From: a virus
Strand: one strand, 5' to 3'
Virus record (IMG/VR): IMGVR_UViG_3300035210_000132
Span: 28,596 to 92,595 of that record
DNA: 64,000 nt
The translations under genes were made by a program, and so were the position numbers. This document shows, one piece after another, positions 13,974-63,811 of this stretch. The first letter of the stretch is position 1; each line of letters starts with the position of its first letter. The notes beneath the pieces are model-generated. The model was not told the DNA's origin. It saw only the letters and a program-made list of their open reading frames with translations, and searched no databases.

Positions 13974-14234
13974 ATGATCTTTAAGCCGATGCCAAAGGAA
14001 GAGATCCTCAAGGCCTTGCGGGGCCATGAGGACATCATTGATAGGGCCGTTAAGGAGCATGAGGCCTTTTTCAAGCGCCTGTCGTGCCCTTCTTGTGGGG
14101 GGGAGGTGATGCCTGTTGTAAATCCCAAGAGGCTCTTCCGAGAGAGCTCAGTGCTTCCCAGCTACCTAGGCAAGTGCCGGTCCTGCGGCGTAGAGTTCGA
14201 GCCGTACACAGGCATCCAAGTCACGCTTCGCTAA
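13974..14234 (+). CDS. Small Cys4 zinc-ribbon protein (86 aa), encoded antisense inside the minus-strand structural operon, in the gap between the tail-fibre and baseplate-J-like genes.
   Basis: 'CPSCGG...(22 aa)...CRSCG'. This is the only plus-strand ORF in the 44-kb block and it occupies a true intergenic gap (13922..14230). Confidence 0.5.
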   Translation: MIFKPMPKEEILKALRGHEDIIDRAVKEHEAFFKRLSCPSCGGEVMPVVNPKRLFRESSVLPSYLGKCRSCGVEFEPYTGIQVTLR

Positions 14235-17200
14235 GTCCTCGTCAGGTAGATCTGCTCTCCAGAAGGCCTGACCAGCTTCTTGGAGGTATTGGGGCCGGCG
14301 ATGAAGTAAGCCTGCAGGTAGTTCCCCTTGAAGAGGGGAGTTCCTGAGCTTAGCCCGATCGCAGTCTCTGAGCGCATGCCTCTGATACGACGATCAGTGC
14401 CGTGGAACAAGGCGATCAGGAAAATGGGCAGATTGACCTTGAGTGCCCCTAGGTTCTTGATCTTGTCTTGCACGAGGTCCGAGCGAATCTCCGCAACATT
14501 CGGATCGATGTTATTAAGATACTGGATGATAGCAGAGGCCACTTCTGCTTCTGCTGATCCTCCCGAGTAGGAGGCGTCCAGCATGACGTATCCAGGCAGG
14601 AAGTGGCGCACCAGCATATTGGCGTTGGTGACTCGATCTAGGGGTGAGTCGAAGAACGACTGCACGTCGTCGACCAGAGGGGCATAGTTGTAAGTAACCT
14701 GGAGGTTCTGGCCAGCCAAGCTGAACTCGTTCTCTAGGTCTGCTGTGGATCCCACAGGCAAGACCGCGTTGGGCAAGATAATGTCTACCTGCTCCTTGTT
14801 CGAGAAAACGAAGTTCTCATCAGCAACTTCTAGGGTGTAACCACCAATCTTGCGATAACCGGAGAGCACAAACCCATCCGAGAAGCCGACATTCATGGCT
14901 GCGGAAGGGCCGTAACCGACGACAGGAAGATCGACATAGTACAGAGCCCCGTCACGATTGCTACTCATAGCCGTAGAAGAAATGCGAGTGACCCCGGAAC
15001 GTAGGATGCGATAGGGACACTTGTGGGCAAAGTTCCTCTGCCCATTTCCTGTGTCTACCACACCGGGAGCCTCTAACTCCATCTGCTTCTCGCTCGTATC
15101 CAGCAAGGGATGACTCTCGTCAGGTGACCAAGGAAAGCTCGTGACTTTCAGAGTCTTGCTGATGGAGTCATAGAGGCGAAAGCGTGCGAACTGATCCGAG
15201 ATCTCAGTGCCCCCGTCGGAGGTAGGAAGAGGCTCGGTAGAAGGGACCGCATGCAGTACCCAACGAACGAAGACCAGGTCCTCTGGGAAATCGGCCGAAC
15301 GTTCCAGCTCCACAAAATAGTCAGTAGCCAGGGTGAAGTGTGGGTCAGTGCCTACGGACAAGATACGATAGGTACCCAGATAGGTAGCATCGTTGGGTAC
15401 TAGGGCAGCCAACAGCGCCGGGCTCTGAGCTGCGTAGATCGTTATCCAGTCGGTTGCCTTGGCGCCAGAAAGCCCAGAGCCAAAGAGTTTCTTCGTCCCA
15501 GGAAGGACCAGGGCTCCTCGAGCACTAATACCAACATCCCCTACGGTGAATCGGATCCCGCCTCCGTAAGCACTGTCCACAGAAGGAGCTGCTACTTTGA
15601 TCCTCTTGAGGGGCCCGGTCTCCTTCGAGCTGACATAGAGGCGAGCCTTTACCAAATCAGCGCTATCGACGGCAACAGCCAGATAGTGAGCAGAGAACAG
15701 GACGTTGGCATTGAGGTCGGCCGCAACGTGATCTAGGTCTGGGTAGTAGCCACTCACGGTGTGGGTGATGGAAAAGGTATGTTCTACGTCGCTGATCCAA
15801 GTTACACCGTTATCCAAGGAGGTCTGAAAACGAACCCTCTTGCCCAGTACAAGACCTGTGTTTCCCGGACCCCACCCAGCATCGGTGCGCACGAAGGCGG
15901 AGGTATAGCTTGAAAAGTCGATCACGGGAGGAGGTACAGACCCAGACAAGACGGGCAAAACTTCCGTCGTGTGTGTCATGGTCCTGTCGAGTTGGATGCG
16001 CAGTAGCGGAGGGTTGGCTACCCAATCTTGCTGAGTCACCTGGATGATCGTGTAGACCCCCAAATCGGGACCACTGTCGATGTAGAAGAGCTGTCCTCCT
16101 GCCAAGGAGGTAAAGTTATCTGCCCCTCCGTAACCTGGGTACGAAGTACCATCGCTAGGCGGGATCAAGAGCTGCACGATGCTCGACCCGGTTTGGGTCA
16201 GGCATAGCCAGCTAGAGGCCATGTCTCCTCGAGCAGGCAAGTCAAGCAACGCTGGGTAGTACTCGAGGGTGTCCCCGACTCGGATGCCCTTCTTGGCGAA
16301 GGAGGATCCACTGGTCATGGCCACAAACCGATCCTGCTGATTACGCAGACCCAGATCACGGTTCCATAGAGCTGGATGCGTCTGAGCAAATGATTCAGGA
16401 ATAATCTGAGCTGCAGGTAGCTTGGGATCGATACGAAACTTCTTGGATCCGTCGGTAGCTAAAGCAAAGGTAGTGGGGTCTTCTTTGGAGTGGAACTCTA
16501 CGGACACAGGATCCAAGAAGTAGAGACGGAAGTCTCCCTTGGCCGAAGGCCCCACCGAGTAGCTGGTCCGGATGAGAGCATCAAAGAAGGTTTTCAACTC
16601 CCCATCACTGGAAAAAGCTATCCCCAAAGAAGAAAGACAGGTGCGGAGTTTGGTAATAAAGGTAGGGTAGAAACCGGCTCCGTTATCCCAGTCGGCAGCA
16701 TACTCCAGAAAACCAAAGAGCTCATCAGCAGTCCAGTCCGGTGCTACGGACACGTCGTTGATGAAGTTGATGGCGGTTCTGAGTGGGTCAACCTTGAGAG
16801 GAGGATCGACCTGTACTATCGCTACGGACCGGTGACCCTGGTCAGCCTTGCCCCAGAGCTCTAGCACACGAAGGTCGGTGATAAGGTAGTTCCCTTGATT
16901 GGGGCCATCGTAGATCGTCAAAGAGTTACCAACGGCAGCATCGGCTAGGTAACTGGTACGATGAGCTCCTGGAACCGCCGAAGAGAACTTGTTGTCGCGG
17001 TGAGCCACGAGAGCTAGAAGCTTGTCTCTTCTACCGTTCCATAAAAATGGAGGCACGTTGACTTCAGTGGTCTCGACTTGATTGGAGGCGTGGTGTGTGA
17101 TCTTGCGCACCACACCATCAGGCTCTTCCAGGCCAAGCGTATACCGGGCATCGGTCGTGTCGTCGATTGCCCCAGGAAGGACAGGGTCAGGAGTAAGGCC

Positions 17201-19210
17201 TCCATTGGCCCACTCGATCATGTCGGGGAAAACTACCAACTGAGTGTCGTAGGTGATGAGCTCCCTACCGGCTCCTTCCAAAGTACCAACAGGACGAACA
17301 TCCACCGCATCCCCGTAGGGAATGACGATGCCTGTGCCCTGTCCCGTAGAGTCCAGGATCTCCAAGCTCTTCACTCTGACCAGGGGACGGCTAAGGCCTG
17401 TAAGCCTCGTGTATATCTGGTAGCTCAGAAACGACCCCGTAGCAGTAGCGGGCCGGTCTACCGTCACGGTTTTAGAGGCCACCGATAGAATAGAGAACTC
17501 TCCAGCATCGACCCCCTCAAGGATCCTGATCGTATCCCCCTCCTTGACCCCAAAATCCTGGACGTCGGTGTTTATGAAAGTGAAGGTAGTCTCCCCAACT
17601 CCTGTCTTCAGGTCAGAGATAGCACCGGTATTAAAAGGCAGTTTCGGTATGTGAGGTTCGATCAAGTCAACACGTATGTTACGCACGACACGGGCTCTGA
17701 GCTTGACCGAGACTGCTGTTGCGGTGGCAAAGATAGAATCAAGACGAAGGTAGTGAGGAGCAGATGCGCTGACCTCTACTACCCGGTACGTTCCTGCGAA
17801 CCCCGTCCCTGTCTCGATCACCAAGGTGTCCCCATCCACGACTCCTGCAAGAACAAAGTCAGTGGTGGGGGAGTAGGCTCGATTTGAGCTTGCCTCTGGG
17901 ATGGTGAGATCTACCACCGCGATAATGGGGGCCTCATCGGCCACATTGTCCAGTGATCCTTGGATCTCGACATCTTCAGTAGGCCGGATGTAGATGTCGG
18001 TATGTCCCCCCAGATGGACTTTGTTGTCGGGGACGGTAATATTGGTGGCCATCCCTCCAGGAATGCCCGATATCGTCAAGTAGCCAGGTTTGAGCAGAGA
18101 GAAGGATCCTTGTTTCACAACTCCGGAAGCATAAAGAGACCGATCGAGGAGGAGAAGGTACCTTCCTGCCGATGCTGCTAGTACGGTGGTTACCTGGGCG
18201 CTTTGGACACCTTGATTATCCTGGAACCTCACCGTGTCCCCAGGTTGCACCAAGATAGAACCAGAAGGGCCGGGGTCTCGGTACACCACCGAAGCTACCC
18301 ATAACCAGTCACCGTAAATCACAGCGGTTCCAGATAGGTGAAGGAAGCCCTCACCTGTACCCGTCAGGACATCCCGGTTCATACCGCTTTCGCCAGCTCC
18401 TATGACTTGGAGGGCGCGTACACTACTAAACAGGTCCTGGGTCCTAACCGAGGACCCTCTCTTGGTTACCAGCGACTTTTCTGAAAGTGCCTGGTTCACT
18501 CGATCGAGGAATTCTTGATTGTTCTCTCGTGGCCGTCCTGTGCCCACAGGAGCCAGATTCGCTACCTGCACTATGCCGGGAACCTGGTCTATTCCAGAGA
18601 TAGCGTTCTTGTCGACGTTGTACTCGGACCCAGGAGACTCGGCCCTGACCACGATGTCCAGGTAGTAGAAACTTCCCTGACGGTTGAACAGCATCTGCTG
18701 TGCTGTGATCAAGTAATTCTGTACCGGGAAGTAAGCTAACCCGGTATTTGTGTAGAGCCGCTTATCTGTACTGACCCTAGAAAGGGTGGGCTGTGCATAG
18801 TACAGGCGCACGAGGCCAGTAGCGTAATCGCCCTCATCACGGGTCTCGAACCAGTTGGAAGCAAAAGCGTCGGCTTCTCCGTCGGATAAGAGAGATGCAT
18901 TCTTGGCCGACTGGTTGATTTTGACCAGCTCGATCTCTCGCTTGAAGGGCTCGAGCAAGAGCTGTAGAGGTTTGATCAGTACATCTTCGAGAGCTCCGCC
19001 ATCGTCGGTAGCCAGATTGGGGAACTCTTGGGTAACTCGATCGACGATGAACGTCGGGACATCAGTAGAGAAAGGGTCCTCGGCAAACCTCTGGAGAATA
19101 GGTGTGATGACCTGCGCTTGTGCTGGGCTCCCAGAAGATAGATCGAGGGTGGAGTTCCAGGCCAGCAGCCGGTTCTCTAGGAAACTTTTCAGGTCGTCAG
19201 AAAAGGCCAT
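14231..19210 (-). CDS. Baseplate-J-like (gp6/gpJ family) baseplate wedge protein with a very long C-terminal extension (1659 aa).
   Basis: The N-terminal ~300 aa shows the characteristic blocks 'ATGLVRLYYAQPT', 'SFYYLDIVVRAESPGSEYNV' and 'IDQVPGIVQVANLAPVGTGRPRENNQEFLDRV' (compare the gpJ 'I.GV..V.N...GG.DsEsDe.LR.R' motif). Confidence 0.55.
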   Translation of the reverse strand: MAFSDDLKSFLENRLLAWNSTLDLSSGSPAQAQVITPILQRFAEDPFSTDVPTFIVDRVTQEFPNLATDDGGALEDVLIKPLQLLLEPFKREIELVKINQSAKNASLLSDGEADAFASNWFETRDEGDYATGLVRLYYAQPTLSRVSTDKRLYTNTGLAYFPVQNYLITAQQMLFNRQGSFYYLDIVVRAESPGSEYNVDKNAISGIDQVPGIVQVANLAPVGTGRPRENNQEFLDRVNQALSEKSLVTKRGSSVRTQDLFSSVRALQVIGAGESGMNRDVLTGTGEGFLHLSGTAVIYGDWLWVASVVYRDPGPSGSILVQPGDTVRFQDNQGVQSAQVTTVLAASAGRYLLLLDRSLYASGVVKQGSFSLLKPGYLTISGIPGGMATNITVPDNKVHLGGHTDIYIRPTEDVEIQGSLDNVADEAPIIAVVDLTIPEASSNRAYSPTTDFVLAGVVDGDTLVIETGTGFAGTYRVVEVSASAPHYLRLDSIFATATAVSVKLRARVVRNIRVDLIEPHIPKLPFNTGAISDLKTGVGETTFTFINTDVQDFGVKEGDTIRILEGVDAGEFSILSVASKTVTVDRPATATGSFLSYQIYTRLTGLSRPLVRVKSLEILDSTGQGTGIVIPYGDAVDVRPVGTLEGAGRELITYDTQLVVFPDMIEWANGGLTPDPVLPGAIDDTTDARYTLGLEEPDGVVRKITHHASNQVETTEVNVPPFLWNGRRDKLLALVAHRDNKFSSAVPGAHRTSYLADAAVGNSLTIYDGPNQGNYLITDLRVLELWGKADQGHRSVAIVQVDPPLKVDPLRTAINFINDVSVAPDWTADELFGFLEYAADWDNGAGFYPTFITKLRTCLSSLGIAFSSDGELKTFFDALIRTSYSVGPSAKGDFRLYFLDPVSVEFHSKEDPTTFALATDGSKKFRIDPKLPAAQIIPESFAQTHPALWNRDLGLRNQQDRFVAMTSGSSFAKKGIRVGDTLEYYPALLDLPARGDMASSWLCLTQTGSSIVQLLIPPSDGTSYPGYGGADNFTSLAGGQLFYIDSGPDLGVYTIIQVTQQDWVANPPLLRIQLDRTMTHTTEVLPVLSGSVPPPVIDFSSYTSAFVRTDAGWGPGNTGLVLGKRVRFQTSLDNGVTWISDVEHTFSITHTVSGYYPDLDHVAADLNANVLFSAHYLAVAVDSADLVKARLYVSSKETGPLKRIKVAAPSVDSAYGGGIRFTVGDVGISARGALVLPGTKKLFGSGLSGAKATDWITIYAAQSPALLAALVPNDATYLGTYRILSVGTDPHFTLATDYFVELERSADFPEDLVFVRWVLHAVPSTEPLPTSDGGTEISDQFARFRLYDSISKTLKVTSFPWSPDESHPLLDTSEKQMELEAPGVVDTGNGQRNFAHKCPYRILRSGVTRISSTAMSSNRDGALYYVDLPVVGYGPSAAMNVGFSDGFVLSGYRKIGGYTLEVADENFVFSNKEQVDIILPNAVLPVGSTADLENEFSLAGQNLQVTYNYAPLVDDVQSFFDSPLDRVTNANMLVRHFLPGYVMLDASYSGGSAEAEVASAIIQYLNNIDPNVAEIRSDLVQDKIKNLGALKVNLPIFLIALFHGTDRRIRGMRSETAIGLSSGTPLFKGNYLQAYFIAGPNTSKKLVRPSGEQIYLTRT

Positions 19211-19219
19211 GGTCTCTCC

Positions 19220-19870
19220 CTACAAAGTCATCTCAGCTACAGCTTGTTGCCCTGAGACAGCAGCCAGGGCGACGCGACACGAAAGGGTGGTAGTAGAGGC
19301 ATCAAAACCTATAGACTCTACCGAAGCCGACAGCAACCTTTCGCTGTTAGGTATGTTGGTCTTAGCAGCCTGGCGACTCATGATCTGGTCTCGGGCTCGG
19401 TTGACCGACGCCATGGCCGAGGCCTGGATGAGCTTTTGGTTGGTGTTAGAGACCGAGCTTCCTACGAGACGCAGTAGGCCGCCACCTTCCTTGGGATGGA
19501 AACGGTCGGATCCAGGGGTCTGTAGTAACATCCTGCAGAAGATCTGGACCAACCTCTCCAGGCCTTTCATCGTTTTGATGCTACCTGACACCTCGAAGTG
19601 CAGGGTGCTTTCCCTACTAACTGACGGCTTATCAGCAGACACTACTACAGAGCGAATAGGAGAAGCGCGCTCCGAGGTAGGAATCTGAGCTAGGAGTAGC
19701 CCAGACGACTCAACGATGAACTCAGGAGCCTCAACATCGTTGATCAGAACTCGGGATGCCTGGTCGAACTGATAGCCCACCACCACAAGACTGGGAGGAG
19801 AGAGGTCCGCATAAGCTACTTTAACAACTTCTAGGAGATCCCGGATCGTTAGGATCTTGATGTCTATCAT
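19220..19870 (-). CDS. Hypothetical baseplate-associated protein (216 aa).
   Basis: Coupled ORF adjacent to the baseplate-J-like gene. Confidence 0.5.
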   Translation of the reverse strand: MIDIKILTIRDLLEVVKVAYADLSPPSLVVVGYQFDQASRVLINDVEAPEFIVESSGLLLAQIPTSERASPIRSVVVSADKPSVSRESTLHFEVSGSIKTMKGLERLVQIFCRMLLQTPGSDRFHPKEGGGLLRLVGSSVSNTNQKLIQASAMASVNRARDQIMSRQAAKTNIPNSERLLSASVESIGFDASTTTLSCRVALAAVSGQQAVAEMTL

Positions 19871-27900: not shown

Positions 27901-28899
27901 TACGGCAACCAGAGTTAGCTCGTCGTGGCTGCTTTTGGCAACTGCGACAACATGGTTCGCTCCGCCACTTGCGCCGATCTTGGCGTAGATGGCAGTCCCT
28001 GAAGAAGTCCAGTTCGTATACGTGTGGGAGGCGCCCACCTGAGCATAGAGGTTGCCCTTGTTGTCTGTGGGAACGACTTGCTCAGCTTGGATACCTCGAC
28101 CAACGGCAACGAGTATGGTGCTGCCAGAGGTTTGCGTGGTGCCCGGAGCCGTAGACACCGAAGTAGCAAGATCGTCAAGATATGAAAAACCGAGACGGTG
28201 CACTCCAACTTGCGGCCCGGTAGGGGCCGCCTTGAAACTGACGATCGCCGCGGACCAGGCTGTCTCGGCCAGGTTGGCCGTGTTGGTCCAGGTCCATGCG
28301 GCTGAGTACGTGCCGATGGGCGCGCCGTCACGGAAGCAGATCTCGGCGCCGGCGTCCGTCGTCGTGTTCTGCGCGGCGGCGGCGCTGGTCCACGAGGCGG
28401 GCGGGTCGGTGAAGCCCGTCGAGACGCGACCCCCGTTGGTGGTGCTGGTGCCGAGGGCAGCGAGCAGGATGTCGCCGACCTGTGTCGTTGTGATCGAGTT
28501 CGTGTCGCCGGTCGTGACCGACGTCTCGCCGTGATTCGTGTTGCTGACGTCGACGGCGGTGCAGGGTGGCAGCTCGAGGAGGACCCAGGTGCCCCACGTC
28601 GACACCGCGCCGTAGGACTGCGTGAGCGTGTGCGTGCCCGCGCTCGCCGACTGGCGCCACCAGACGCCGATCTTGGTCGCGTCCGCCCCGGTGTTGCCGG
28701 TGGAGTTGGGTGTGAGGACGGCCGCCCAGACATCGCCCGAAGAATCGGTCGGCGTGGGCCAGGCAGCGTCACCGACAAGGCCACTCGTCGAGACGATCAC
28801 GACCACGAGGGTGTTCCCGGCCGTGACGCCGGAGAGCGAAGCGGTGGGGAGCGACTGGAGGCTCTGGAAGCTGCCGTTGGCCTTCTGGATCCAACTCAC
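24907..28899 (-). CDS. 1330-aa protein made of an N-terminal ~480-aa globular beta-rich domain (its first ~200 aa are encoded by very high-GC DNA), about 34 tandem 20-aa repeats (consensus LSETxxLSExLxxKxxxxxx), and a short Gly-rich C-terminus. Candidate tail tape-measure protein (gene order sheath-tube-chaperones-TMP) or, alternatively, an alpha-helical fibre.
   Basis: Repeats read directly, for example 'LSETATLSEALASKWKAFIG / LAESLSLSESLSSKKILATI / LTETVGLTEQLLARKASTIA ...'. It lies downstream of the 650-aa gene, the two tube-like paralogs and three small ORFs. Confidence 0.6.
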   Translation of the reverse strand: MSWIQKANGSFQSLQSLPTASLSGVTAGNTLVVVIVSTSGLVGDAAWPTPTDSSGDVWAAVLTPNSTGNTGADATKIGVWWRQSASAGTHTLTQSYGAVSTWGTWVLLELPPCTAVDVSNTNHGETSVTTGDTNSITTTQVGDILLAALGTSTTNGGRVSTGFTDPPASWTSAAAAQNTTTDAGAEICFRDGAPIGTYSAAWTWTNTANLAETAWSAAIVSFKAAPTGPQVGVHRLGFSYLDDLATSVSTAPGTTQTSGSTILVAVGRGIQAEQVVPTDNKGNLYAQVGASHTYTNWTSSGTAIYAKIGASGGANHVVAVAKSSHDELTLVAVEVTSALRLAAATWVERLYPAALTAVSVTVEGPAVLVALCWGDGGIGNGLHTMTPSAGWSRVDSVTEDAALVQCTVAVQVVVAAGTYGVTWTPNQNEGAQLYLFALDSAGAPAVLDVLSYADTYLGPTVLPFPSKADIVARSWSDAYDYADVTGFPGLGFFDAPLFTGTAYTALLSESLSVSEGLSVSQHIVQALQDYLYLKVFLNSYGFRAVLRNPVGTPLIAGYNSIARLSANAVVALFETLTPFSEGLSSLWSTKQILSESSVLTEALTATRHSFITVSETAITVSESLATLMRAITSLTETDSLSESLAASRRSYAQISETVTLTETLNARKVVIQVLAESVTLAETLIAARVAKVSLSETATLSEALASKWKAFIGLAESLSLSESLSSKKILATILTETVGLTEQLLARKASTIAFSENLALSETLNLAKRVVQALSENVAFSELISSKLKSFQALSESPNLVEALITKASAFPHVSEIVTFLEDLRVGRYIAAPVSETVPLSELLASKRVTQQSLSESVSLAELLNSIRGAKPQLTETVSVAESLASKSKAGFILSETLLVSEALASHWAAKQTFSQLMTLNESLGTTFRAKPLLQEYVTILESLVSQVRAHAVITEILSVIEAITVLVGSEVTATETVHINEAVGLLEAVTAKVATRLNLTESPALAEAVRAVMHFRQTLLDNVFLAEALSSYNKYVVALAETTSLTELLAVSQKMRTALTQTLVVTESVSTLAKYYEHQAELVGLLEAVAVHASRHASLSESVPVSESLVAAKKLLAQLSEGISLTEALASLARFKPTPVETVSLAESLRAAATYFQRPSETLSITETMTASAGFKEKPSETLIVSESVSLLAHFIQQQVETVQVLEAIGASANYPVAVAELLTISEELNASLGARVNLSEQVELVEELRALANFYALIAELLPLDENLAVDLVRNLIEATAIVLGTSEAYASGVVFGEGGAGPGPKVAEGSTTSAELSGQQVPDPKPR
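25150..27430 (-). repeat. About 2.2 kb of in-frame tandem 60-bp repeats (~34 copies, degenerate) encoding the 20-aa repeat; recurring core GTCTC(N)GAGA on the plus strand.
   Basis: 60-bp spacing of 'accgtctctgtgag', 'cactttccgagag', 'caccgtctccgagac' (26266/26328/26386) and many more. Confidence 0.7.
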
Positions 28900-46465: not shown

Positions 46466-47974
46466 ATGCCAAAGCTTTCAAGCGGTTCCGTAAGTTATGT
46501 AGGGCTTTCTTTTGAGGAACGACAGAGGCGCTGGAAGGGGGAGCTCAGGGAGTTTCGACAGCATCATGGGCGAGGTGAGAGGGAGTCGGTTTGGGAGATC
46601 TGGGTAGTAGGCGACAGGGTGTTTTCTCGGTTTGGGTTACTGGGGGGTGCCCAGCAGGTGACGAGTTACGTCGGTAAGACGAAGAACGAAGGTAGGTCTA
46701 ACGAGGTCACTACAGAAGAAGATGCCCTCGCCGAGGCCCGCCGCGATGTCCGCAAGAAGTGGGAGTACGAGGGTTACGATGAGTACGAGGACGGGGCGAA
46801 CATCGACTCCCGGAATAACGGGCTATCGGTACAAGCTCTCCTCACCAACTTGCCAGGGTCGTTCTGCCTCTACAAGCCCGAGAACAACCTCTATGACCAG
46901 AAGAAGCTGCTCAGCAAGGCTAAGGAAGGCAAGGTCTGGTACACGTTCAAGAGAGATGGCGTCGCCAAGTTGATCGTCGTCGATTACTACGGCGAGGTCA
47001 GGATCTACTCGAGGCGGGCTAGAGCCTGGCAAGACAAAGAAGGACCTACCGAACTCCCTGATGGCACGTTGGACTACAGCACCATGATTCCCTGGGCAGC
47101 TCGCTTTCCCCACCTGATCGAGGCAGTCAAAGACCTGAACCTGCCCAAGGGAACGATGATGGCGACCGAGCTCGTAGCTCGGAACAAAGACAACTTCCCC
47201 TATATCTCTGGGCTGACTAAGGGCTACACCCAGAGAGCCCTCGACGACATGAAGGCGAACGGGTTTCCTATTCTTTACTGGTGGGATCTTCCGTTCTTCG
47301 GCGGAGAGGACTTGGTGAGCACCGTCCCCTTCAAGCAGCGCGTGTTCTTGCTGCAGCAGCTCATCATGCAGGGAGGCAAAACTGCCCTCGAGAACATTCA
47401 GCCGCTGAACTACAGCACCAACGGGGCCTTTGCCAGTCCCGAGGCTGCTGTGGACTACGCCAAGAGCATCGGAGCCGAGGGCTTCGTGGTCGTGGATCCG
47501 GATAGTATCTATGGGGATAAAGGCTGGAACCTGAAAGGCAAGCCAGACCGCCCCTCCATGTGCGCCAAGCTCAAGCCGGCCTACGAGGACGACTTCGTGG
47601 TGATGTGGGATCCCGACCGAGACACCAGCTCGACACGAACCCTTGGTGAGTGGGGTACGGGAGACAACGAAGCGAATAAGATCGTCAAGCTACCCGATGG
47701 TCGTATGGTGAAGCACGGGGGTGTGGGATCCGTAGGTCTCTGGCAGTACAACGCAGCCGGGGAGCTCATCTTCATCTGCAAGTGTGCCTCTGGGATGGAC
47801 TATACGTTCCAGGCCAGTCTCACCCCAGCGGACTTCCCGGCTGTCTGGGAGGTTCGCTACAACGAGAGGACCTATGTGAGTGAGGGAGACAAGACTAACG
47901 CTCTGAAGTTCCCAAGAGTCTTGCGGGTGCGAGACGACAAGGCCATGGCCGAGTGTATCAACACCAGACTCTAG
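46466..47974 (+). CDS. ATP-dependent polynucleotide ligase of the covalent nucleotidyltransferase superfamily (502 aa), with KxDG motif I and DNA-ligase-like motifs III, IV and V. DNA ligase is likely; RNA ligase is not excluded.
   Basis: Motif I 'FKRDGVAKLIVV', motif III 'MMATELVARN', motif IV 'AEGFVVVD', motif V 'CAKLKP'. A ~160-aa N-terminal extension precedes motif I. Strong SD. Confidence 0.6.
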   Translation: MPKLSSGSVSYVGLSFEERQRRWKGELREFRQHHGRGERESVWEIWVVGDRVFSRFGLLGGAQQVTSYVGKTKNEGRSNEVTTEEDALAEARRDVRKKWEYEGYDEYEDGANIDSRNNGLSVQALLTNLPGSFCLYKPENNLYDQKKLLSKAKEGKVWYTFKRDGVAKLIVVDYYGEVRIYSRRARAWQDKEGPTELPDGTLDYSTMIPWAARFPHLIEAVKDLNLPKGTMMATELVARNKDNFPYISGLTKGYTQRALDDMKANGFPILYWWDLPFFGGEDLVSTVPFKQRVFLLQQLIMQGGKTALENIQPLNYSTNGAFASPEAAVDYAKSIGAEGFVVVDPDSIYGDKGWNLKGKPDRPSMCAKLKPAYEDDFVVMWDPDRDTSSTRTLGEWGTGDNEANKIVKLPDGRMVKHGGVGSVGLWQYNAAGELIFICKCASGMDYTFQASLTPADFPAVWEVRYNERTYVSEGDKTNALKFPRVLRVRDDKAMAECINTRL

Positions 47975-57624: not shown

Positions 57625-58314
57625 ATGGAAACGTTTCGAGCGTTCTGGGCAAGTTGGGGTCCGTGGATCACTGTGAGTCTAATTCCGACCTTGATCACAG
57701 GATTGTCACTGTCACCAGCTACAGCTGGGACCGTGAGTACCGTTCAGAAGGTCTGGGATCTCATCAAGCAGGTCCTGGCTTTCCTCTCCGTGGCGACCTT
57801 CAAGGATCAGCCGGGAACCTTCCAACTCCCAGTGGTCGGAGGACTCAAGATGACGAAACAGCTGCGCATGGCCAAGAAGCCCGTTACTCCCAACAGTGGC
57901 AACCTCGGAGGACCCGGACTGGCCTTGGTGATCTGCTTTGCCCTGATCCAGAACGCTTGCTGCGCCTGGACGGGGACCTGTAAGACGGTTCCAGGGCAGA
58001 TAGCTACAGATGTGATCGATTGTGGCAAGGACTCTATCAAGGCTGAAGTCGCACATCTTCTACCTACGGTTGTTGCTATCTTGACCGGAGGTGCACCGGA
58101 CTGGTCGAGTCAGCTCGATGCCCTGAAGATCATGGGCTTCGAGGCCTTGTCCTGTGCCATCGCAGCTGCTGCCCAAGATCTCCAGAACCTGATGGCTGCT
58201 CCTGGGCCTTCGGGAGTGCTGAGCTCGACCAGCACCAAGGCCGCTTCTGACAAGCACAAAGCCGATACCTGGCTGAAGACCTACAAGGTCACGTTCAGCA
58301 ACGTGGAGAAGTAG
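57625..58314 (+). CDS. Membrane protein with 3-4 predicted TM segments (229 aa). Holin-like candidate.
   Basis: SD AAGGAGG 9 nt upstream. TM-like segments 'WASWGPWITVSLIPTLITGLSL', 'GLALVICFALIQNACCAW' and 'LLPTVVAILTGGA'. Immediately precedes the peptidase gene. Confidence 0.5.
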   Translation: METFRAFWASWGPWITVSLIPTLITGLSLSPATAGTVSTVQKVWDLIKQVLAFLSVATFKDQPGTFQLPVVGGLKMTKQLRMAKKPVTPNSGNLGGPGLALVICFALIQNACCAWTGTCKTVPGQIATDVIDCGKDSIKAEVAHLLPTVVAILTGGAPDWSSQLDALKIMGFEALSCAIAAAAQDLQNLMAAPGPSGVLSSTSTKAASDKHKADTWLKTYKVTFSNVEK

Positions 58315-58315
58315 C

Positions 58316-59110
58316 ATGCCTCTGCATCAGGAGATCAACGGCAAGCTCCGCAACATGTATGGCTGGCGTAGAGATCTCCCCGATCACCGGGACGAGAACT
58401 ACAAGGTCATCTTCGACCGCAAGGTTATGCCCAGGATGCTTGATCTATCGGCTAACTGCCCCAGGACCGAGGATCAAGGTGGCTTGGGCAGCTGTACCGC
58501 CAACGCCGCGACTTCAGCCATGGAGTTCCTCTACAAGAAGGTAGGCAAGTCCCAGCCCGAGCTCTCTCGCCGATTCCTGTACTTCGCTACCCGAGTCTGG
58601 ATCGCCCACGGTCTCCCTGGGGATGATAGTGGGGCCCAGATCCGTGATGTCATGAAGGCTCTGGCCAAGTACGGAGTCTGCCTGGAGACCACCTGGCCCT
58701 ACGATATCGATCAGTTTTCAGTCTCTCCTTCGCAACAAGCGCGGGAAGATGCCCTGACGCACCAGATCACCAAGTACTCCCGCCTGCCCAACGTCTCGAC
58801 CATCCGGGCTTGCATGGCCCAGGGCTATCCGGCAGTAGGAGGATTCTCGGTCCCTGCCAGCATGATGGATGAGGAGACCAGCAAGACGGGGATCGTCAAG
58901 CTACCAGGAAAGAACGAAGAGTTCATCGGAGGACATTGTGTGTTCTTCGTCGGCTACGACGACTACAAGCAACTCCTCAAGTTCCAGAATTCTTGGGGAG
59001 AGAGCTGGGGAGACGACGGCTTCGGCTACCTGCCCTATGACTATGTCACCAACTGGCTTGCCAGTGACTTCTGGTCTATCCAGGACGAGGAATTCGCAGC
59101 CGCTGCCTAG
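58316..59110 (+). CDS. Papain-like cysteine peptidase, MEROPS C1 family type (264 aa).
   Basis: Catalytic-Cys block 'QGGLGSCTANAATSAMEF', His block 'GGHCVFFVGYDD' and the Asn/Trp block 'NSWGESWGDDGFGYLPY' match C1A signatures. Confidence 0.65.
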   Translation: MPLHQEINGKLRNMYGWRRDLPDHRDENYKVIFDRKVMPRMLDLSANCPRTEDQGGLGSCTANAATSAMEFLYKKVGKSQPELSRRFLYFATRVWIAHGLPGDDSGAQIRDVMKALAKYGVCLETTWPYDIDQFSVSPSQQAREDALTHQITKYSRLPNVSTIRACMAQGYPAVGGFSVPASMMDEETSKTGIVKLPGKNEEFIGGHCVFFVGYDDYKQLLKFQNSWGESWGDDGFGYLPYDYVTNWLASDFWSIQDEEFAAAA

Positions 59111-59121
59111 GAGACTTATAA

Positions 59122-59520
59122 ATGAACGTCCTCTACGACAAAGGTCGCCAGGGTTTCCTGGATGGCTTGATCTCATGGACCAGCAATGTCATCAAGGCGG
59201 TCCTGGTCGACACAGCATCGTACACGGTCAACCTCGCCACGGATCAGTACCTGAGTATCATCCCAGGCGGGGCGAAGCTTGCGACCTCGAGCGCCTTCAC
59301 CAACAAGACCAGTGTTGCTGGGGCAGCTGATGCTGACGACCTGCTCTTCCCGGCAGTTATGGGAGGGAGCACAGCCAGAGCCGTGGTGATCTACCAGGAC
59401 ACAGGGGATCCGGCTACCAGCCGGCTCATTGCCTTCGAGAACGTGGCCAACACACTGCCCCTGGCTACTTCGGGAAGTGACGTCCTGATCGAGTGGGCTT
59501 CTTACATCTTCAAGCTCTAG
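59122..59520 (+). CDS. P2 gpH N-terminal-like 'tail-collar fibre' domain protein (132 aa). Candidate fibre or baseplate adaptor.
   Basis: 'LLFPAVMGGSTARAVVIYQDTGDPATSRLIAFEN' compared with gpH 'IPPEVGGFWMRELGLYDDAGTLIAVAN'. SD AGGAG. Confidence 0.4.
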   Translation: MNVLYDKGRQGFLDGLISWTSNVIKAVLVDTASYTVNLATDQYLSIIPGGAKLATSSAFTNKTSVAGAADADDLLFPAVMGGSTARAVVIYQDTGDPATSRLIAFENVANTLPLATSGSDVLIEWASYIFKL

Positions 59521-59531
59521 AGGAGTAGCAG

Positions 59532-60578
59532 ATGCCAGGCTCGATCCCATCTCAGATCAAGACGTGGGAACACAACGTCAACCTCCTGGTGTCAAGCACT
59601 GGGGTGGACGGCAGCACCGACAAGTCCATCCTCCTCACTATCAAAAATGCCCTGATCGGCTTCGCAAACGTTCCCTGCGTGGTCAAGGGATCCTCCAACG
59701 GCTCTAGTGCCGGAGCTATGGATGGAGTAGATCGCTGGGGCAGCATAGCCAGTATCAACCAGGGAGGTGTGGGCTCTAACCACTCCTGGATCGTTCTTGA
59801 ATTCCCTGGAGTCAACAACGGATCTGGAGGGAAGCTCCAAGTCTGCTTCGAGTACACCACCCTTGGCGCTGGTAACATCGACAACTGGATCCTGAAGATC
59901 TCTCCTGCGGCTGGCTTCACAGGAGGTTCTGTAAACACAGCACCTTCGGCTACCGACGTCATTTCCCTCCAGACGGTCTCCATCGCCTTCGCCTACAACT
60001 ACCCCGGGGTACCGAAGCCCCATCGCCTGCACTTCTTTCATTCTACGGACGGCGCCATCACTCACCTGGTCATCTCTGCCAACAACACGTCCCTTTGCCA
60101 CTTCATGTTTGCGGCAGTGACGCCTACAGTCGATGCGGTCACCACAGGACAGCCCGCTGGCTGGAACTACCCCTGTATCGTCTCCGCTGAAGCGGCTAGC
60201 GCAGGAGGAACAAACAACCTAACGCCTGCCAACTATACCACCTACGGGCTCAAGCACGCCAGCATCCACAACGGCCTCGGACTGGCCTGTGGCTTCGAGT
60301 GGGAGGGAGGATCTTCCTTCATTGCTGCAGGGGGCATGGCAGAAGTGCCGAACGATATTACGGGACAGTACCCCATGCTGCCTTATGGCATCTGGTCCAA
60401 TACAGGAGGCGGGAATGGAAGATACGGCTACGTACAAGATATGTGGTTTATTTCTTCCACGGCGTTTGCCTCTATCGGTTCGACCATCGGCGCAGACGAC
60501 AACCATCGTCGCTGGGCCGTGTTTGGATGTCTCGTACTACCATGGCTAAACGATAGCACGCTTCCTCTAGGGAGTTGA
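59532..60578 (+). CDS. Structural/adhesin-like protein (348 aa), tandem paralog A.
   Basis: Shares N-terminal ('MPGSIP..KT.E...IGFANVPC.VKGSSNG..AGAMDGVDRW') and C-terminal ('DDNHR.WAVFGCLVLPW.ND.T.P') blocks with the next gene. SD GAGGAG. Confidence 0.55.
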   Translation: MPGSIPSQIKTWEHNVNLLVSSTGVDGSTDKSILLTIKNALIGFANVPCVVKGSSNGSSAGAMDGVDRWGSIASINQGGVGSNHSWIVLEFPGVNNGSGGKLQVCFEYTTLGAGNIDNWILKISPAAGFTGGSVNTAPSATDVISLQTVSIAFAYNYPGVPKPHRLHFFHSTDGAITHLVISANNTSLCHFMFAAVTPTVDAVTTGQPAGWNYPCIVSAEAASAGGTNNLTPANYTTYGLKHASIHNGLGLACGFEWEGGSSFIAAGGMAEVPNDITGQYPMLPYGIWSNTGGGNGRYGYVQDMWFISSTAFASIGSTIGADDNHRRWAVFGCLVLPWLNDSTLPLGS

Positions 60579-60580
60579 AC

Positions 60581-61600
60581 ATGCCTGGCTCAATCCCGAC
60601 TCCCCTCAAGACCTACGAGATTCACGCCAACAACTCCTTCGTCAATAACAACAGTTCACCCAACGATCCTAGGAATGATCTGTTTACTGTCAAGAGCGCT
60701 CTCATAGGGTTCGCCAATGTACCTTGTATTGTCAAGGGCAGCAGCAATGGTGCTGGTGCTGGTGCTATGGATGGTGTCGATCGTTGGGCAGGCACAGGAA
60801 ACCTGAACTGGGCTCTTGCTGGATCGAACCACTCGTGGATTGTTCTTGAGTTTCCAAGGATCAACGATGGAGCAGGACACAAACTACAGCTGTGCTTTGA
60901 TCTGAACTTTAGCTCTCCTTCAGCGAATATAACTATTGTAGTTTCTCCAAAAGGTTTTTCGGGTGGAAGCGCCACGGCCAGACCGACTGCTTCAGACGAG
61001 GTCAGCCTTGGCACCATCGTCCTTCCTAGCGGATCAGGAACAGTGCGTTGGCAATCCATTCACGCTACAGATGGAACAACTACACACATCATATTTTCCT
61101 CTAGTAACGTCGTCGTAGCTTGGTGGATGTTTTCCACAGTTATCCCTACCATCGATGCTGTAACCACGGGACAGCCGACAGGCTGGGACTACCCCTTCGT
61201 AGTCTGGGTAGAGGCAGCTTCCAATCTTTCGAATCCAGTGATGACCCCTGCCAACATTATCTCGTACCAACCTAGACACGCTGGAAGCCACGCAGGAATA
61301 GACCTGGGGCTGGCTCTGACCATAGAGGGTGGTGCCACTACCATCAACAGTGGGGGATCTGGGGCATCCCAGCACGCCATCACTTCTCAATACCCGATGT
61401 TGCCACATGGTGTCTGGTGCAACGTAGTGGGGGCAAGAGGGCGGCTAGGGTACATCCCAGACCTCTGGTTCGTATCTACGACCGCCTTTTCCCAGATTGG
61501 ATCTACCTTAGGAGAAGATGACAACCACCGGAAATGGGCCGTTTTCGGGTGCTTGGTACTGCCCTGGACCAACGATACTACCGTACCAGCGGGAGCGTAG
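60581..61600 (+). CDS. Structural/adhesin-like protein (339 aa from the ATG at 60581), tandem paralog B.
   Basis: Start moved from the track's TTG (60575) to the ATG that aligns with paralog A's 'MPGSIP' and has the SD GGGAG 6 nt upstream. Confidence 0.55.
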   Translation: MPGSIPTPLKTYEIHANNSFVNNNSSPNDPRNDLFTVKSALIGFANVPCIVKGSSNGAGAGAMDGVDRWAGTGNLNWALAGSNHSWIVLEFPRINDGAGHKLQLCFDLNFSSPSANITIVVSPKGFSGGSATARPTASDEVSLGTIVLPSGSGTVRWQSIHATDGTTTHIIFSSSNVVVAWWMFSTVIPTIDAVTTGQPTGWDYPFVVWVEAASNLSNPVMTPANIISYQPRHAGSHAGIDLGLALTIEGGATTINSGGSGASQHAITSQYPMLPHGVWCNVVGARGRLGYIPDLWFVSTTAFSQIGSTLGEDDNHRKWAVFGCLVLPWTNDTTVPAGA

Positions 61601-61603
61601 TAG

Positions 61604-63811
61604 ATGGCCAACTTCACAAATCTTGAGAAGCAAACCTACGTTGGTTTCTACTCAGGCATCCCTGACGTCTATAAATCCCTGGCGGTCGTAGCTGTACAAT
61701 CCTCTAAGAAAGACCGCTTTGGTAGGGCCCCCAGTTGCGACCTTCTAGGCCCTACCAACGGAACCACCATCAACAAGACTACTCCATTGGTCTTTCGCAT
61801 CACCGACCCTGATGCTGAGGCCTCTACTGCCAGTGTTGTCCTGACCATCTCGAGAACCCCGAATGCGGAGACTGTAGATATGATCCGAGCCGGCACCAGG
61901 GTCTACTCGGAAGGCGGTACCAAGGCGACGGTCACCGTTACCTTCACCAGATCCGAAAACATCTCTTATCGGTCGGTGCGCTACGCAGCGGGGACACGCT
62001 TCTACAACGCCTTTGCTAGCCGAGCCTACCTGATCAACAAAGAGGTCTATCTGTCCTCGACCTCAGCTGCCGGCTACCCTTCGAGTGTGACCTGTACTGC
62101 CGAGGCATATGGCTACGACCCCTACATCTGGGGAGAGATTCCAGCAGGAGCCAAGATCTTCACCGACCCTGATGGTTCTTCGGATGTGGTAGGCACACAG
62201 ATTGTCTACTACCCTCAAACAGAAGATCAGGGCTGGGTTCAATGGCAACCCAACCATGCCTACTCCCTTGGAGATCAGATCGGGCACAATGGAAACGTCT
62301 ATCTTTGCTACCAGGCGGGTGTTTCTGGAACTCAAGGTCCGTCGGGGCTACTGAACATCGCAGACGGTACCGTGTGGTGGTCCTATCGCTTCGAGGACAC
62401 CAAGAGCCGTATCACCATGGCCATCGCGCATGCCCAGAGCACACCCCCAGCAGGAAAGATCCCAGCTGGCTACCGACTGCAGGCCGGTAGTGGGCAGTAC
62501 TTCCGAGTTATTTCTGATACGGTAGTTGGGGCAGGCGTCACGAGCTACAATGTCGCTTGCCAGGCTGAGGAAGCCGGTATAGACGGGAACGTTCCCGCCA
62601 ACACCATCAGACTCCAGCCCGCCCAAACCCTACCAGCAGGATCGAACTTCGACCCCAACTGGACAGTAGACAACGCTGCCCCTGCTAGCGGGGGTACGGG
62701 AGCCACAGACTCGGTCAGCTTCTACACCAGAGAAGTCGGTGTGCTTCTTCCAGGATCCGATGTCTGTTACGTTTGGGCCGATGCCGAGGTACCAGGAAGT
62801 CTGGGAAATGCTCCGGCGGGATCGTTGACCCAGCTGCGCTTCGAAGGGGTCGCGTATAGCATCGCGGGCCTGACCTGCACCAACACCCTACCCGCCTCAG
62901 GGGGAGAAGACTCGTCAGCTCTAGAGAGAGCTCTTCCTTGTATCAAGTTCAACATCTCTGGTCGAGTAGAGAGCGTTCACGACGGCACGACCTTCATGCC
63001 AGGTTATGCTGACTTGTCTGCCATCGAGTCAGTTCCAGGGGGCTATCTCTACAGTGTAAAAAGAACGGGAGGGTGGACGGACACCTCTATCACACTCTAC
63101 CCCGCTGCCTACGATGTTTCTGGTAATGAGATGGCTCCCATCTCGGTGGGGTCTTGGGCAGTTTCCATCCCTTCTCTGTCTGTCACTCTGGTGTCTCCGA
63201 CCAACGGCGCCGAGCTCCTCACCAACGCAGACCCTCTCGTAGTCGACCTGGTAGGCGACATCGTTACGGGCGAAGTCGTGGTCAACAGCGAGCTCGTGTA
63301 CGCTGCCGGAGCGTTTCAGACAGGCTTCTTGGCAAGCTCGACCAAAGTCGCTGTCACCGACGGCTACCGGTTGTCGATCGTGAGAGACGCTGGCTGGGTG
63401 CTGAACCCGACCATGTCGGTGCTCTTGATCGACACTCGAGGCAACCACCAGACGGCGTACTACACCTGGCTCTGGGGAGCGTCGATCACAGGAACTCCTC
63501 CTGTCATCACCATCATCTCTCCTCCTGCTAATGACCATGGGCGCAGCATCTACGCCAATACCTTCCTGGTCTTCGAGGTCACGGATCCCGATGACAACCT
63601 ACGGGGCTTCTACCCCATCATCTACTATCCAGATGGCAGCGACGCCCTGGTTCATGATGGCACGAGTTTCAGGCCCAACTTCGCGACGTACTCGACTCGG
63701 GATGTGATCACCCACGGCTACCGCTTCCGCATACGGCCAAACGGCGGCTGGGCAAAGTCCCCATCACTCTTCCCTGTGGGCTACGATGAGGTCGGCCTGG
63801 AGATTCCATGA
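61604..63811 (+). CDS. Large beta-rich protein (735 aa) with a CBM5/12-like (chitin-binding type 3) motif. Candidate receptor-binding or glycan-binding tail protein.
   Basis: 'WVQWQPNHAYSLGDQIGHNGNVYLCYQAGVSG' fits the CBM5/12 'W....Y..GD.V..NG..Y.C.Q' pattern. SD GGGAG. Confidence 0.5.
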   Translation: MANFTNLEKQTYVGFYSGIPDVYKSLAVVAVQSSKKDRFGRAPSCDLLGPTNGTTINKTTPLVFRITDPDAEASTASVVLTISRTPNAETVDMIRAGTRVYSEGGTKATVTVTFTRSENISYRSVRYAAGTRFYNAFASRAYLINKEVYLSSTSAAGYPSSVTCTAEAYGYDPYIWGEIPAGAKIFTDPDGSSDVVGTQIVYYPQTEDQGWVQWQPNHAYSLGDQIGHNGNVYLCYQAGVSGTQGPSGLLNIADGTVWWSYRFEDTKSRITMAIAHAQSTPPAGKIPAGYRLQAGSGQYFRVISDTVVGAGVTSYNVACQAEEAGIDGNVPANTIRLQPAQTLPAGSNFDPNWTVDNAAPASGGTGATDSVSFYTREVGVLLPGSDVCYVWADAEVPGSLGNAPAGSLTQLRFEGVAYSIAGLTCTNTLPASGGEDSSALERALPCIKFNISGRVESVHDGTTFMPGYADLSAIESVPGGYLYSVKRTGGWTDTSITLYPAAYDVSGNEMAPISVGSWAVSIPSLSVTLVSPTNGAELLTNADPLVVDLVGDIVTGEVVVNSELVYAAGAFQTGFLASSTKVAVTDGYRLSIVRDAGWVLNPTMSVLLIDTRGNHQTAYYTWLWGASITGTPPVITIISPPANDHGRSIYANTFLVFEVTDPDDNLRGFYPIIYYPDGSDALVHDGTSFRPNFATYSTRDVITHGYRFRIRPNGGWAKSPSLFPVGYDEVGLEIP

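Follow-up and report, generated by a model that had tools for sequence, protein, structure and literature searches.

In the Pseudomonas siphophage JBD30, the adjacent paralogues gp47 and gp48 have similar folds, and three gp47/gp48 heterodimers make up the lateral fibre, which binds the type IV pilus (PMC11445458, Valentova et al. 2024). The same interpretation has been predicted for gp67/gp68 of phage Lydia (PMC11946847). The gene pair of JBD30, a small siphophage, lies between the genes for the tape-measure and the distal tail protein gp49, residues 2-74 of which wrap the gp47/gp48 fibres. In addition, placement of gp47 in the nitrilase superfamily has been suggested and a hydrolase role proposed for it (PMC11445458). 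Mycobacteriophage Bxb1 carries an accessory structure at its tail tip that it can do without, the tail wing, with gp30 as base, gp31 as arm and gp33 as brush (PDB 9D93; PMC12646305). Here we describe two tandem genes, A and B, in a window of 64,000 nucleotides (positions 28,596 to 92,595 of the IMG/VR virus record IMGVR_UViG_3300035210_000132) from a phage of ~199 kb, which are best read as a variant of the known two-paralogue bead-like arm design. By analogy, their products may be heteromeric arms at the periphery of the baseplate, anchored by the N-terminus of the wedge protein encoded downstream, a reading to which we give a probability of about 0.55.

Paralogue A (59532..60578, plus strand) encodes a protein of 348 aa and is preceded by a GGAG Shine-Dalgarno sequence at 59522-59525. 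Paralogue B (60581..61600) follows on the same strand after a gap of 2 nt and encodes 339 aa when read from ATG 60581. In the mechanical list of open reading frames, B started at TTG 60575, overlapping the stop codon of A. The most likely start is ATG 60581; a GGGAG Shine-Dalgarno sequence (60570-60574) is located 6 nt upstream of it, and the independent gene call of the database protein P0002, which is identical to B, also begins there. The tandem duplication reported in the initial annotation is real, as the adjacent A and B aligned end to end with 49% identity and 67% positives (E 5e-119). The C-terminal block DDNHR.WAVFGCLVLPW.ND.T.P listed there was found as well, with 85% identity over residues 321-340. 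At the amino acids conserved between A and B, only 35% of the codons were identical, even in the best-conserved blocks, and synonymous sites were saturated. The duplication is therefore ancient, and gene conversion, which was rejected as the source of the conserved blocks, has not made the two genes alike again. Both proteins retain all the family-invariant residues and this, together with the saturation of synonymous sites, indicates long-term purifying selection on A and B. Among the related loci compared, the nearest relative of A was B and vice versa; as judged by sequence, the A/B split is lineage-specific and not orthologous to the split between gp47 and gp48.

A conserved N-terminus of ~70 aa and a divergent middle had been claimed for the pair. 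Residues 1-10 and 35-100 (65-85% identity) were indeed conserved, but residues 11-34 were the most divergent (15-20%), and the middle, with only 15-45% identity at 101-190 and 211-270, harboured a conserved island at 191-220 (70%). Residues 271-348 showed 50-85% identity. This patchiness was above chance, the variance among 20-aa blocks being 0.038 as compared to 0.012 in shuffled alignments, and none of 5000 shuffles reached 0.038. The identity is thus non-uniform along the alignment, yet its profile mirrors conservation in four orthologues from other phages (r = 0.56) and correlates with that in distant family members (r = 0.45). Since the profile correlates with orthologue conservation, the pattern is largely a property of the family and not of this duplication, and the alignments suggest that it reflects fold constraints and not a swapped specificity module. 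These data bear on an alternative, along the lines of the initial annotation, in which A and B are alternative receptor-binding proteins, each forming separate homo-oligomers that would use the same docking site through their conserved ends, while the diverged regions would recognise different receptors and widen the host range. The significant patchiness, with its two stretches of 15-45% identity, is in keeping with such proteins, but its match with orthologue conservation argues against them.

Structure prediction gave one compact alpha/beta-sandwich body (monomer pTM 0.86), a fold common to A/B and to JBD30 gp47/gp48 (PDB 8RK3/8RK5), their closest structural relatives. Profile-profile alignment of the A/B family with the gp47/gp48 family was collinear over 230 columns but weak (hhalign, E 0.0018, probability 15%); the profile did not match single gp47/gp48 sequences, and neither HMM search nor Foldseek against PDB recovered gp47/gp48 for the A/B family. 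Like gp47 and gp48, which are of comparable size (305-350 aa), A and B are encoded by adjacent and almost gapless paralogous genes (1 nt between JBD30_047 and JBD30_048) and, by analogy and from the genes alone, would be located at the baseplate periphery. Unlike gp47 and gp48, to which they have no significant sequence similarity, A and B arose by a lineage-specific duplication that left them about half identical, are encoded in a separate operon ahead of a Baseplate_J-like wedge gene, and belong to a family with its own motifs (GSSN, DGVDRW, HSWIVLE, RPTATDE, STDG and GRxGxxxDxW) and with arrays of up to 7 copies. The model is a single compact domain devoid of a separable tip, and the only structural relatives, gp47/gp48, act as an obligate heterodimer; both points speak against alternative receptor-binding proteins. 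The proposed modular architecture of attachment ends and an exchangeable core was likewise not borne out, given one compact body and a conserved/variable pattern that mirrors a family-wide constraint.

The family to which A and B belong comprises ~2,900 metagenomic clusters at 50% identity and has no Pfam or PHROG model. A did not match any of 50,697 GenBank phage records (tblastn, INPHARED), and no PHROG, tail-fibre families included, was matched by A, B or the 62 members of family alignment A2. A scan of GTDB genomes with a degenerate DNA pattern returned 10 matches, and the family was encoded in only one of these, a Dependentiae MAG. Similarity to a Streptomyces protease inhibitor, obtained by phmmer/hmmsearch against PDB sequences, was discarded as chance-level (E 7e-4 with a single sequence, 0.18 with a profile, and then gone). 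Related loci carry 1, 2 or 4-7 tandem copies; many relatives are single-copy, and the long arrays of 4-7 copies occur in large phages. With so many single-copy relatives, homodimers must be possible wherever dimers are formed, a point against the heteromeric reading. In the arrays of loci L034 and L036, copies at odd positions are 55-63% identical to one another and those at even positions 47-55%, whereas identity between odd and even copies is only 23-29%. L018/L019 and L033/L040 alternate in the same way, and such identities indicate that in several lineages the duplicated unit is the pair and not the single gene. Single-copy relatives, which show function without a paralogue, and arrays readable as specificity repertoires would suit alternative receptor-binding proteins. 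However, it is the pair that was duplicated in relatives, and no cassette-swap boundary or recent recombination was visible, contrary to the cassette swapping across related contigs that had been envisaged. We consider alternative receptor-binding proteins rather unlikely and retain heteromeric arms as the preferred reading.

Several polar residues are invariant or nearly so in the family (S54, S55, D64, D67, R68, S85, D142, D173 and D303) and could form an active or metal-binding site; W86 and P138 are family-invariant as well. A and B might then be virion-associated or soluble enzymes, such as hydrolases of cell-wall or surface polymers, instead of arm subunits, a possibility with which the hydrolase role proposed for gp47 (PMC11445458) and a C1 peptidase gene in the same operon would agree. 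However, no Pfam family was found for A and B at E<=1 or for gp47/gp48 at E<=0.01, neither CN_hydrolase nor, for A and B, any tail-fibre family, and the PHROG searches with the 62 members gave no enzyme match either. Moreover, no Cys is conserved among these 62 members, and the nitrilase Glu-Lys-Cys triad is therefore absent. Cryo-EM shows gp47/gp48 as structural fibre subunits. An enzymatic role in place of an arm function appears very unlikely.

A and B are part of a tightly packed plus-strand operon with gaps of 2-11 nt and a Shine-Dalgarno sequence at every start, in agreement with the earlier description of a plus-strand cassette apart from the main tail genes; the main baseplate genes, including that of a Baseplate_J-like protein of 1659 aa (14231..19210), are on the minus strand. 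A scan for promoters and terminators gave nothing above shuffles. The first gene of the operon (57625..58314, plus strand) encodes a 229-aa protein with hydrophobic N-terminal and central segments that could be assigned to no family, its Pfam matches all being sub-threshold. The second (58316..59110, plus strand) encodes a Peptidase_C1 cysteine peptidase of the papain family (264 aa; Pfam PF00112, E 1.8e-13; phrog_16701 peptidase) and ends 11 nt 5' of the gene (59122..59520, plus strand) for a 132-aa homologue of the Bxb1 gp31 'tail wing arm' (phrog_644, E 8.5e-36). A connection of the C1 peptidase with an ORF of locus L041, suggested by jackhmmer, did not recur with blastp and was discarded. 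The 132-aa protein had been taken for a gpH-N-terminal-like adaptor, but it is not gpH-like; its residues 29-127 match residues 2-100 of gp31 in PDB 9d93 (99 residues, E 1.1e-13). The gene 5' of A is thus a gp31 sequence homologue and, as in Bxb1, a peptidase gene is found directly 5' of the arm gene. Unlike in Bxb1, the peptidase is papain-like (C1) and not a D-Ala-D-Ala carboxypeptidase, and the host and the tail type are probably different. Neither a gp30-like D-Ala-D-Ala carboxypeptidase base nor a gp33-like brush was found at this locus.

Directly downstream of B, on the plus strand, is the gene (61604..63811) for a 735-aa Baseplate_J-like wedge protein (Pfam Baseplate_J, E 4e-13; phrog_6 baseplate wedge). 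This had been described as a CBM5/12-motif protein, and a CBM5/12-like insert is indeed present at residues 213-241 (62240-62326), just below the Pfam cut-off (CBM_5_12, E 1e-5, 25.8 versus 26.2 bits), but the protein is primarily Baseplate_J-like. It further contains three beta-sandwich repeats of ~100 aa (~419-510, 520-626 and 627-735) and a probable fourth at ~40-140. Two lectin-like (Laminin_G_3) proteins are encoded just 3' of the wedge gene. The tail and host-recognition character ascribed to the locus is supported, in that A and B are best taken as structural components of the tail or baseplate, encoded among host-recognition genes. The wedge protein begins with MANFTNLEKQ, and its residues 1-67 (61604-61804, plus strand), the proposed anchor of A and B, share 47% identity over 67 aa with the protein encoded after the family member in L001. 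An MA[DN] start was found in 13 of 27 genes directly 3' of family genes as compared to 11 of 448 other genes (p 4e-12), a motif picked post hoc in a setting where Met-Ala starts are common generally. JBD30 is similar in that the product of the next gene, gp49, starts with a comparable N-terminal peptide (MATFPGF), which in that phage wraps the fibres.

Two separate operons of the window each encode one Baseplate_J-like protein, and in L001, L023 and L035 the family gene is located between the central spike gene and sheath-initiator or wedge genes. Both observations would be compatible with A and B being core wedge-like parts of a second baseplate-type assembly that includes the second Baseplate_J-like protein. 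However, the family gene is missing from MW202816, which is closely related to the L001 baseplate module, and is hence accessory; core wedge proteins do not usually vary in copy number from 1 to 7, and the structural homologues gp47/gp48 are peripheral. We regard core wedge-like parts as very unlikely. Elsewhere, the family gene is found downstream of Baseplate_J (L003) or directly after Mu_Gp48 (L006). Family genes are located within baseplate modules and end or adjoin baseplate genes, as do those of classical tail fibres or receptor-binding proteins, for which the slot after Mu_Gp48 is an example, and a host-recognition role is presumed for them as well. Unlike classical tail fibres, A and B lack fibrous repeats as well as a separable N-terminal adaptor or C-terminal tip domain, are not accompanied by a chaperone gene, and are predicted to have a compact, globular body.

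In the reading as heteromeric peripheral arms, A and B would be virion proteins at the baseplate periphery, each folding into one compact alpha/beta-sandwich body. By analogy with gp47/gp48, we infer that they most likely pair into A:B heterodimers. Stacks of these would give short, bead-like arms at the sides instead of a trimeric fibre of the classical type. The arms may be held on the baseplate by the extended N-terminal part of the 735-aa wedge protein, much as residues 2-74 of gp49 wrap the JBD30 fibres. They would then be the first to touch a surface structure of the host, probably reversibly, and their putative partners in this are the CBM5/12-like insert carried by the wedge protein and the pair of Laminin_G_3 proteins.

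More tentatively, it is possible that the family supplies half of a general plug-and-socket system by which accessory arms for host recognition are hung on the baseplate of any long-tailed phage. The socket may be a compact subunit of the gp47/gp48 fold working as an alpha/beta pair, and the plug may be a short N-terminal peptide (MA-D/N-hydrophobic-D/N-G...) on the next-encoded protein. Carriers of the plug may include the siphophage distal tail protein, the myophage sheath initiator, the Baseplate_J-like wedge, an FN3-rich giant protein and a ~90-aa adaptor. In large phages, multiplication of the pair, up to at least 7 genes, may serve to make bead-chain arms that are heteropolymeric, or several different sets of arms.

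No part of phage genomes is annotated less well than the receptor-binding hardware, which sets the host range. Through the locus described here, a large 'dark' family can be connected to a structure that has been solved and whose part in adsorption is demonstrated. On the best reading of the pair, small pilus-specific Pseudomonas siphophages are not alone in having the two-paralogue, bead-like type of fibre, which also occurs beside myophage-type wedge genes and in large phages, frequently in multiplied form. Should the N-terminal docking peptide prove real, it would provide a simple rule for finding the attachment partners of such arms and a handle for engineering accessory adhesins.

The two adjacent plus-strand ORFs A (59532..60578, 348 aa) and B (60575/60581..61600, 339 aa from ATG 60581) aligned end to end in BLASTP with 49% identity and 67% positives (E 5e-119), which confirmed the tandem duplication proposed in the initial annotation. 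The start of B is almost certainly ATG 60581, since it is preceded by GGGAG at 6 nt and is also the start in an independent call of P0002, a database protein identical to B. From 57625 onward, genes either overlap or are separated by gaps of ≤11 nt, and GGAG or GGGAG precedes each start read in this plus-strand run; they therefore form a single, closely packed operon. Scanning for promoters and terminators added nothing. The first gene (57625..58314, +) encodes a protein of 229 aa that has no assigned family and contains hydrophobic segments that apparently span a membrane. A gene for a papain-family (C1) peptidase (58316..59110, +) lies directly upstream of that for a 132-aa protein (59122..59520, +). 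The latter had been taken for a gpH-like adaptor; instead, it matched phrog_644 (E 8.5e-36), annotated as of unknown function, and the Bxb1 'tail wing arm' gp31 (PDB 9D93, E 1.1e-13). In Bxb1, the 'wing base' that carries gp31 and gp33 is gp30, a D-Ala-D-Ala carboxypeptidase, and the wing is dispensable for growth, as a gp30 deletion mutant is viable (PMC12646305). The order of C1 peptidase and gp31 homologue found here resembles that of gp30 (peptidase wing base) and gp31 (arm) in Bxb1. This parallel is suggestive, and the two genes suggest an enzyme-bearing accessory tail appendage.

Identity between A and B was uneven beyond chance, the observed block variance being reached in 0 of 5000 shuffles. 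The anticipated pattern of conserved ends and divergent middle held only in part. Residues 1-10, 35-100 (65-85%) and 271-348 (50-85%) were conserved, and identity was 15-45% over residues 101-190 and 35-45% over residues 211-270, but residues 11-34 were the least conserved of all stretches (15-20%) and a conserved island (70%) occupied residues 191-220. The initial annotation had seen in this pattern two alternative receptor-binding proteins with a diversifying specificity region. However, the profile tracked conservation within the family (r 0.56 for four orthologues of other phages, r 0.45 for distant members), and the pattern is thus mostly a signature of the fold and not of paralogue-specific diversification, which disfavours that reading. 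Identical codons were used at only 35% of the amino acids common to A and B, and at 18-33% within the best-conserved blocks, ruling out gene conversion between them. The duplication is ancient, and both copies are kept by purifying selection.

Neither A nor B matched Pfam or PHROGs or had a meaningful match among PDB sequences, and tblastn of A against 50,697 GenBank phage records gave no match. A word-indexed search found only 17 relatives, and an HMM run exhaustively against 1.84 billion cluster representatives returned 2,888 clusters at E≤1e-3, 1,252 of which reached E≤1e-30. Nearly all of the best 150 matches listed were 310-350 aa and aligned over their full length. As judged from these searches, the family is large, unnamed and essentially metagenomic. 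Residues S54, W86, P138 and D303 are invariant, and near-invariant ones include D67, S85, D142, S171, D173, G174 and G299. The family alignments A1 and A2 also revealed the highly conserved polar motifs GSSN, DGVDRW, HSWIVLE, RPTATDE, STDG and GRxGxxxDxW, and the invariant or near-invariant polar residues persist across a mean column identity of ~27%.

The AlphaFold2 model of A, built from an 18-sequence alignment, was confident (mean pLDDT 80.5, pTM 0.86) and predicted a single compact body of beta-sheets with an N-terminal helix packed on them. The fold-matched chains were confirmed as gp47 (JBD30_047, 318 aa) and gp48 (JBD30_048, 307 aa) of Pseudomonas phage JBD30, and structure matches in BFVD were 'virion structural proteins' of siphophages KL1, AH2 and AchV4. 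The adjacent JBD30 genes for gp47 and gp48 (1 nt gap) are flanked by the tape-measure gene (gp46) and by that of the distal tail protein (gp49). Cryo-EM of this phage revealed three lateral 'bent-arm' fibres projecting from the baseplate, each consisting of three heterodimers of gp47 and gp48, two proteins similar in fold; the fibre clasps the type IV pilus (PMC11445458). Phage Lydia gp67/gp68 have been interpreted likewise (PMC11946847). Profile-profile comparison of 62 A/B family members with 40 gp47 relatives gave a collinear alignment of 230 columns, but with weak statistics (E 0.0018, probability 15%). The fold relationship predicted by the model is solid, and homology with gp47/gp48 is plausible from the profiles. 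A and B are predicted to be baseplate-peripheral structural proteins of gp47/gp48 fold, and we put the probability that they are structural proteins of the baseplate at roughly 0.85. The same fold disfavours two alternative receptor-binding proteins. A nitrilase-type hydrolase assignment was suggested for gp47 (PMC11445458); this was not reproduced, as neither gp47 nor gp48 had a Pfam match at E≤0.01. The only precomputed Pfam domain among the gp47 relatives listed was PA14 (PF07691), in three proteins of ~456-474 aa (P0226, P0232 and P0244), and a further relative, P0257, has the UniRef name F5/8 type C domain protein. Fusions of this kind are in keeping with an adhesin and not with a nitrilase.

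When all fetched loci were searched by HMM, ~16 distinct loci carried a single family copy and ~10 carried two, including that of the window phage; L034, L037, L005, L038, L018, L033 and L040 had 4-7 copies, and most of these contigs are 72-377 kb long. These tandem arrays, from IMG/VR and ENA contigs, occupy L018 7992-16969, L033 and L040 2600-11200, L034 4600-8920, L037 5800-11700 and L005 3650-10150, besides that in L038. The arrays are made up of alternating alpha/beta pairs, often spaced by small (~75-120 aa) genes. In a neighbour-joining tree (no bootstrap), odd-position copies clustered together, as did even-position copies, in L018/L019 and in L034/L036/L033/L040. Identity in L034/L036 was 55-63% within the odd type and 47-55% within the even type, but only 23-29% between types. 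Thus, the alpha/beta pair was duplicated as a unit, as would be expected if both proteins function together. With these pair-wise duplications added to the fold and the conservation profile, it is unlikely that A and B are alternative receptor-binding proteins. The same tree placed the two copies of the window phage, and those of L017, L020, L024 and L028, as mutual closest relatives, indicating that pairs arose repeatedly and independently; A and B grouped with L001 and L006, which are single-copy members from myophages.

In L001, an E217/Pam3-like myophage, the family gene lies between a Gp138_N-type spike gene and that of the sheath initiator, with a wedge protein encoded next; L023 and L035 have an apparently similar layout, from gene order and sizes only. 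The family gene follows Mu_Gp48 in L006, which is the slot of the fibre in Mu, and lies a few genes past Baseplate_J in L003/L004. The gene is missing from MW202816, whose baseplate module is closely related to that of L001, and is therefore accessory. Directly downstream of A and B is a 735-aa Baseplate_J-like protein (61604..63811; Baseplate_J E 4e-13, phrog_6 wedge match) with a CBM5/12-like insert scoring 25.8 bits, below the 26.2-bit Pfam cut-off, and three C-terminal beta-sandwich repeats of ~100 aa, three or four copies in all. This repeat recurs downstream of family members in L001, L011, L023, L026, L028 and L035. The main baseplate genes, for a 1659-aa Baseplate_J-like protein (14231..19210) and a baseplate protein (19220..19870), are on the strand opposite to A and B, and the two Baseplate_J-like proteins belong to different operons. 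In L007, a separate assembly of the same phage, the region past the gene of the 735-aa protein encodes two Laminin_G_3 lectin-like proteins, then two PG_binding_1 peptidoglycan-binding proteins (L007 14865-16612) and, just past the window end, has a LigD_N-domain gene (L007 16602-18041); an ATP-dependent DNA ligase gene is at 46466..47974 of the window. Of the very large minus-strand ORFs between 1754 and 45821, nearly all lack a Pfam or PHROG match (1236, 1360, 786, 748, 1330, 650, 1259, 407 and 1184 aa), that of 1360 aa having only weak sub-threshold PKD-domain matches. The phage (contig ~199 kb) has diverged strongly from phages in culture.

Highly varied products are encoded directly downstream of family copies or pairs: proteins of ~75-120 aa; proteins of 141-213 aa, those of L023, L026 and L035 ending in the beta-sandwich domain of the 735-aa protein; a 293-aa protein with a sheath-initiator domain (L001); a 326-aa protein with a GP46 domain (L006); a 1080-aa FN3-rich protein; and, in the window phage, the 735-aa protein itself. 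These products tend to start with MA-(D/N/T)-hydrophobic-(D/N)-G. With a regex that had been tuned once the sequences were inspected, 14 of 27 downstream genes matched, as did 1 of the 448 others; the untuned ^MA[DN], itself a motif noticed post hoc, matched 13 of 27 and 11 of 448, respectively (p 4e-12). The 735-aa protein (MANFTNLEKQ...) and the L001 downstream protein (MANFTTPELQ...) share 47% identity over their first 67 residues. JBD30 gp49 starts with MATFPGFQ, and the segment so starting wraps the gp47/gp48 fibres (PMC11445458). In view of these shared N-termini, the N-terminus of the downstream protein is a putative docking element, offered as a lead. Proteins of ~90-120 aa following family copies or pairs share a peptide of MA(D/T)V(D/N)G type at the N-terminus and the motif Y-x-(M/K)-R-(G/A)-x-D at the C-terminus, and are an unannotated partner family (L018 9996-10292, 13622-13909 and 15941-16225; L014 8988-9263; L016 8988-9293; L019 10000-10362; L020 7709-7972 and 8961-9308; L025 8945-9223; L038 8770-9099). 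The window has no member of this partner family; there, the 735-aa Baseplate_J-like protein bears the N-terminal peptide instead.

A and B resemble JBD30 gp47/gp48 in fold and in two-paralogue logic. In contrast, they belong to a different sequence family that tends to form arrays, and are set in a myophage-type wedge neighbourhood of a ~199-kb phage. We lean slightly towards a picture in which A and B would assemble as a heteromeric, bead-like arm at the periphery of the baseplate, anchored there through the N-terminus of the wedge protein encoded downstream.
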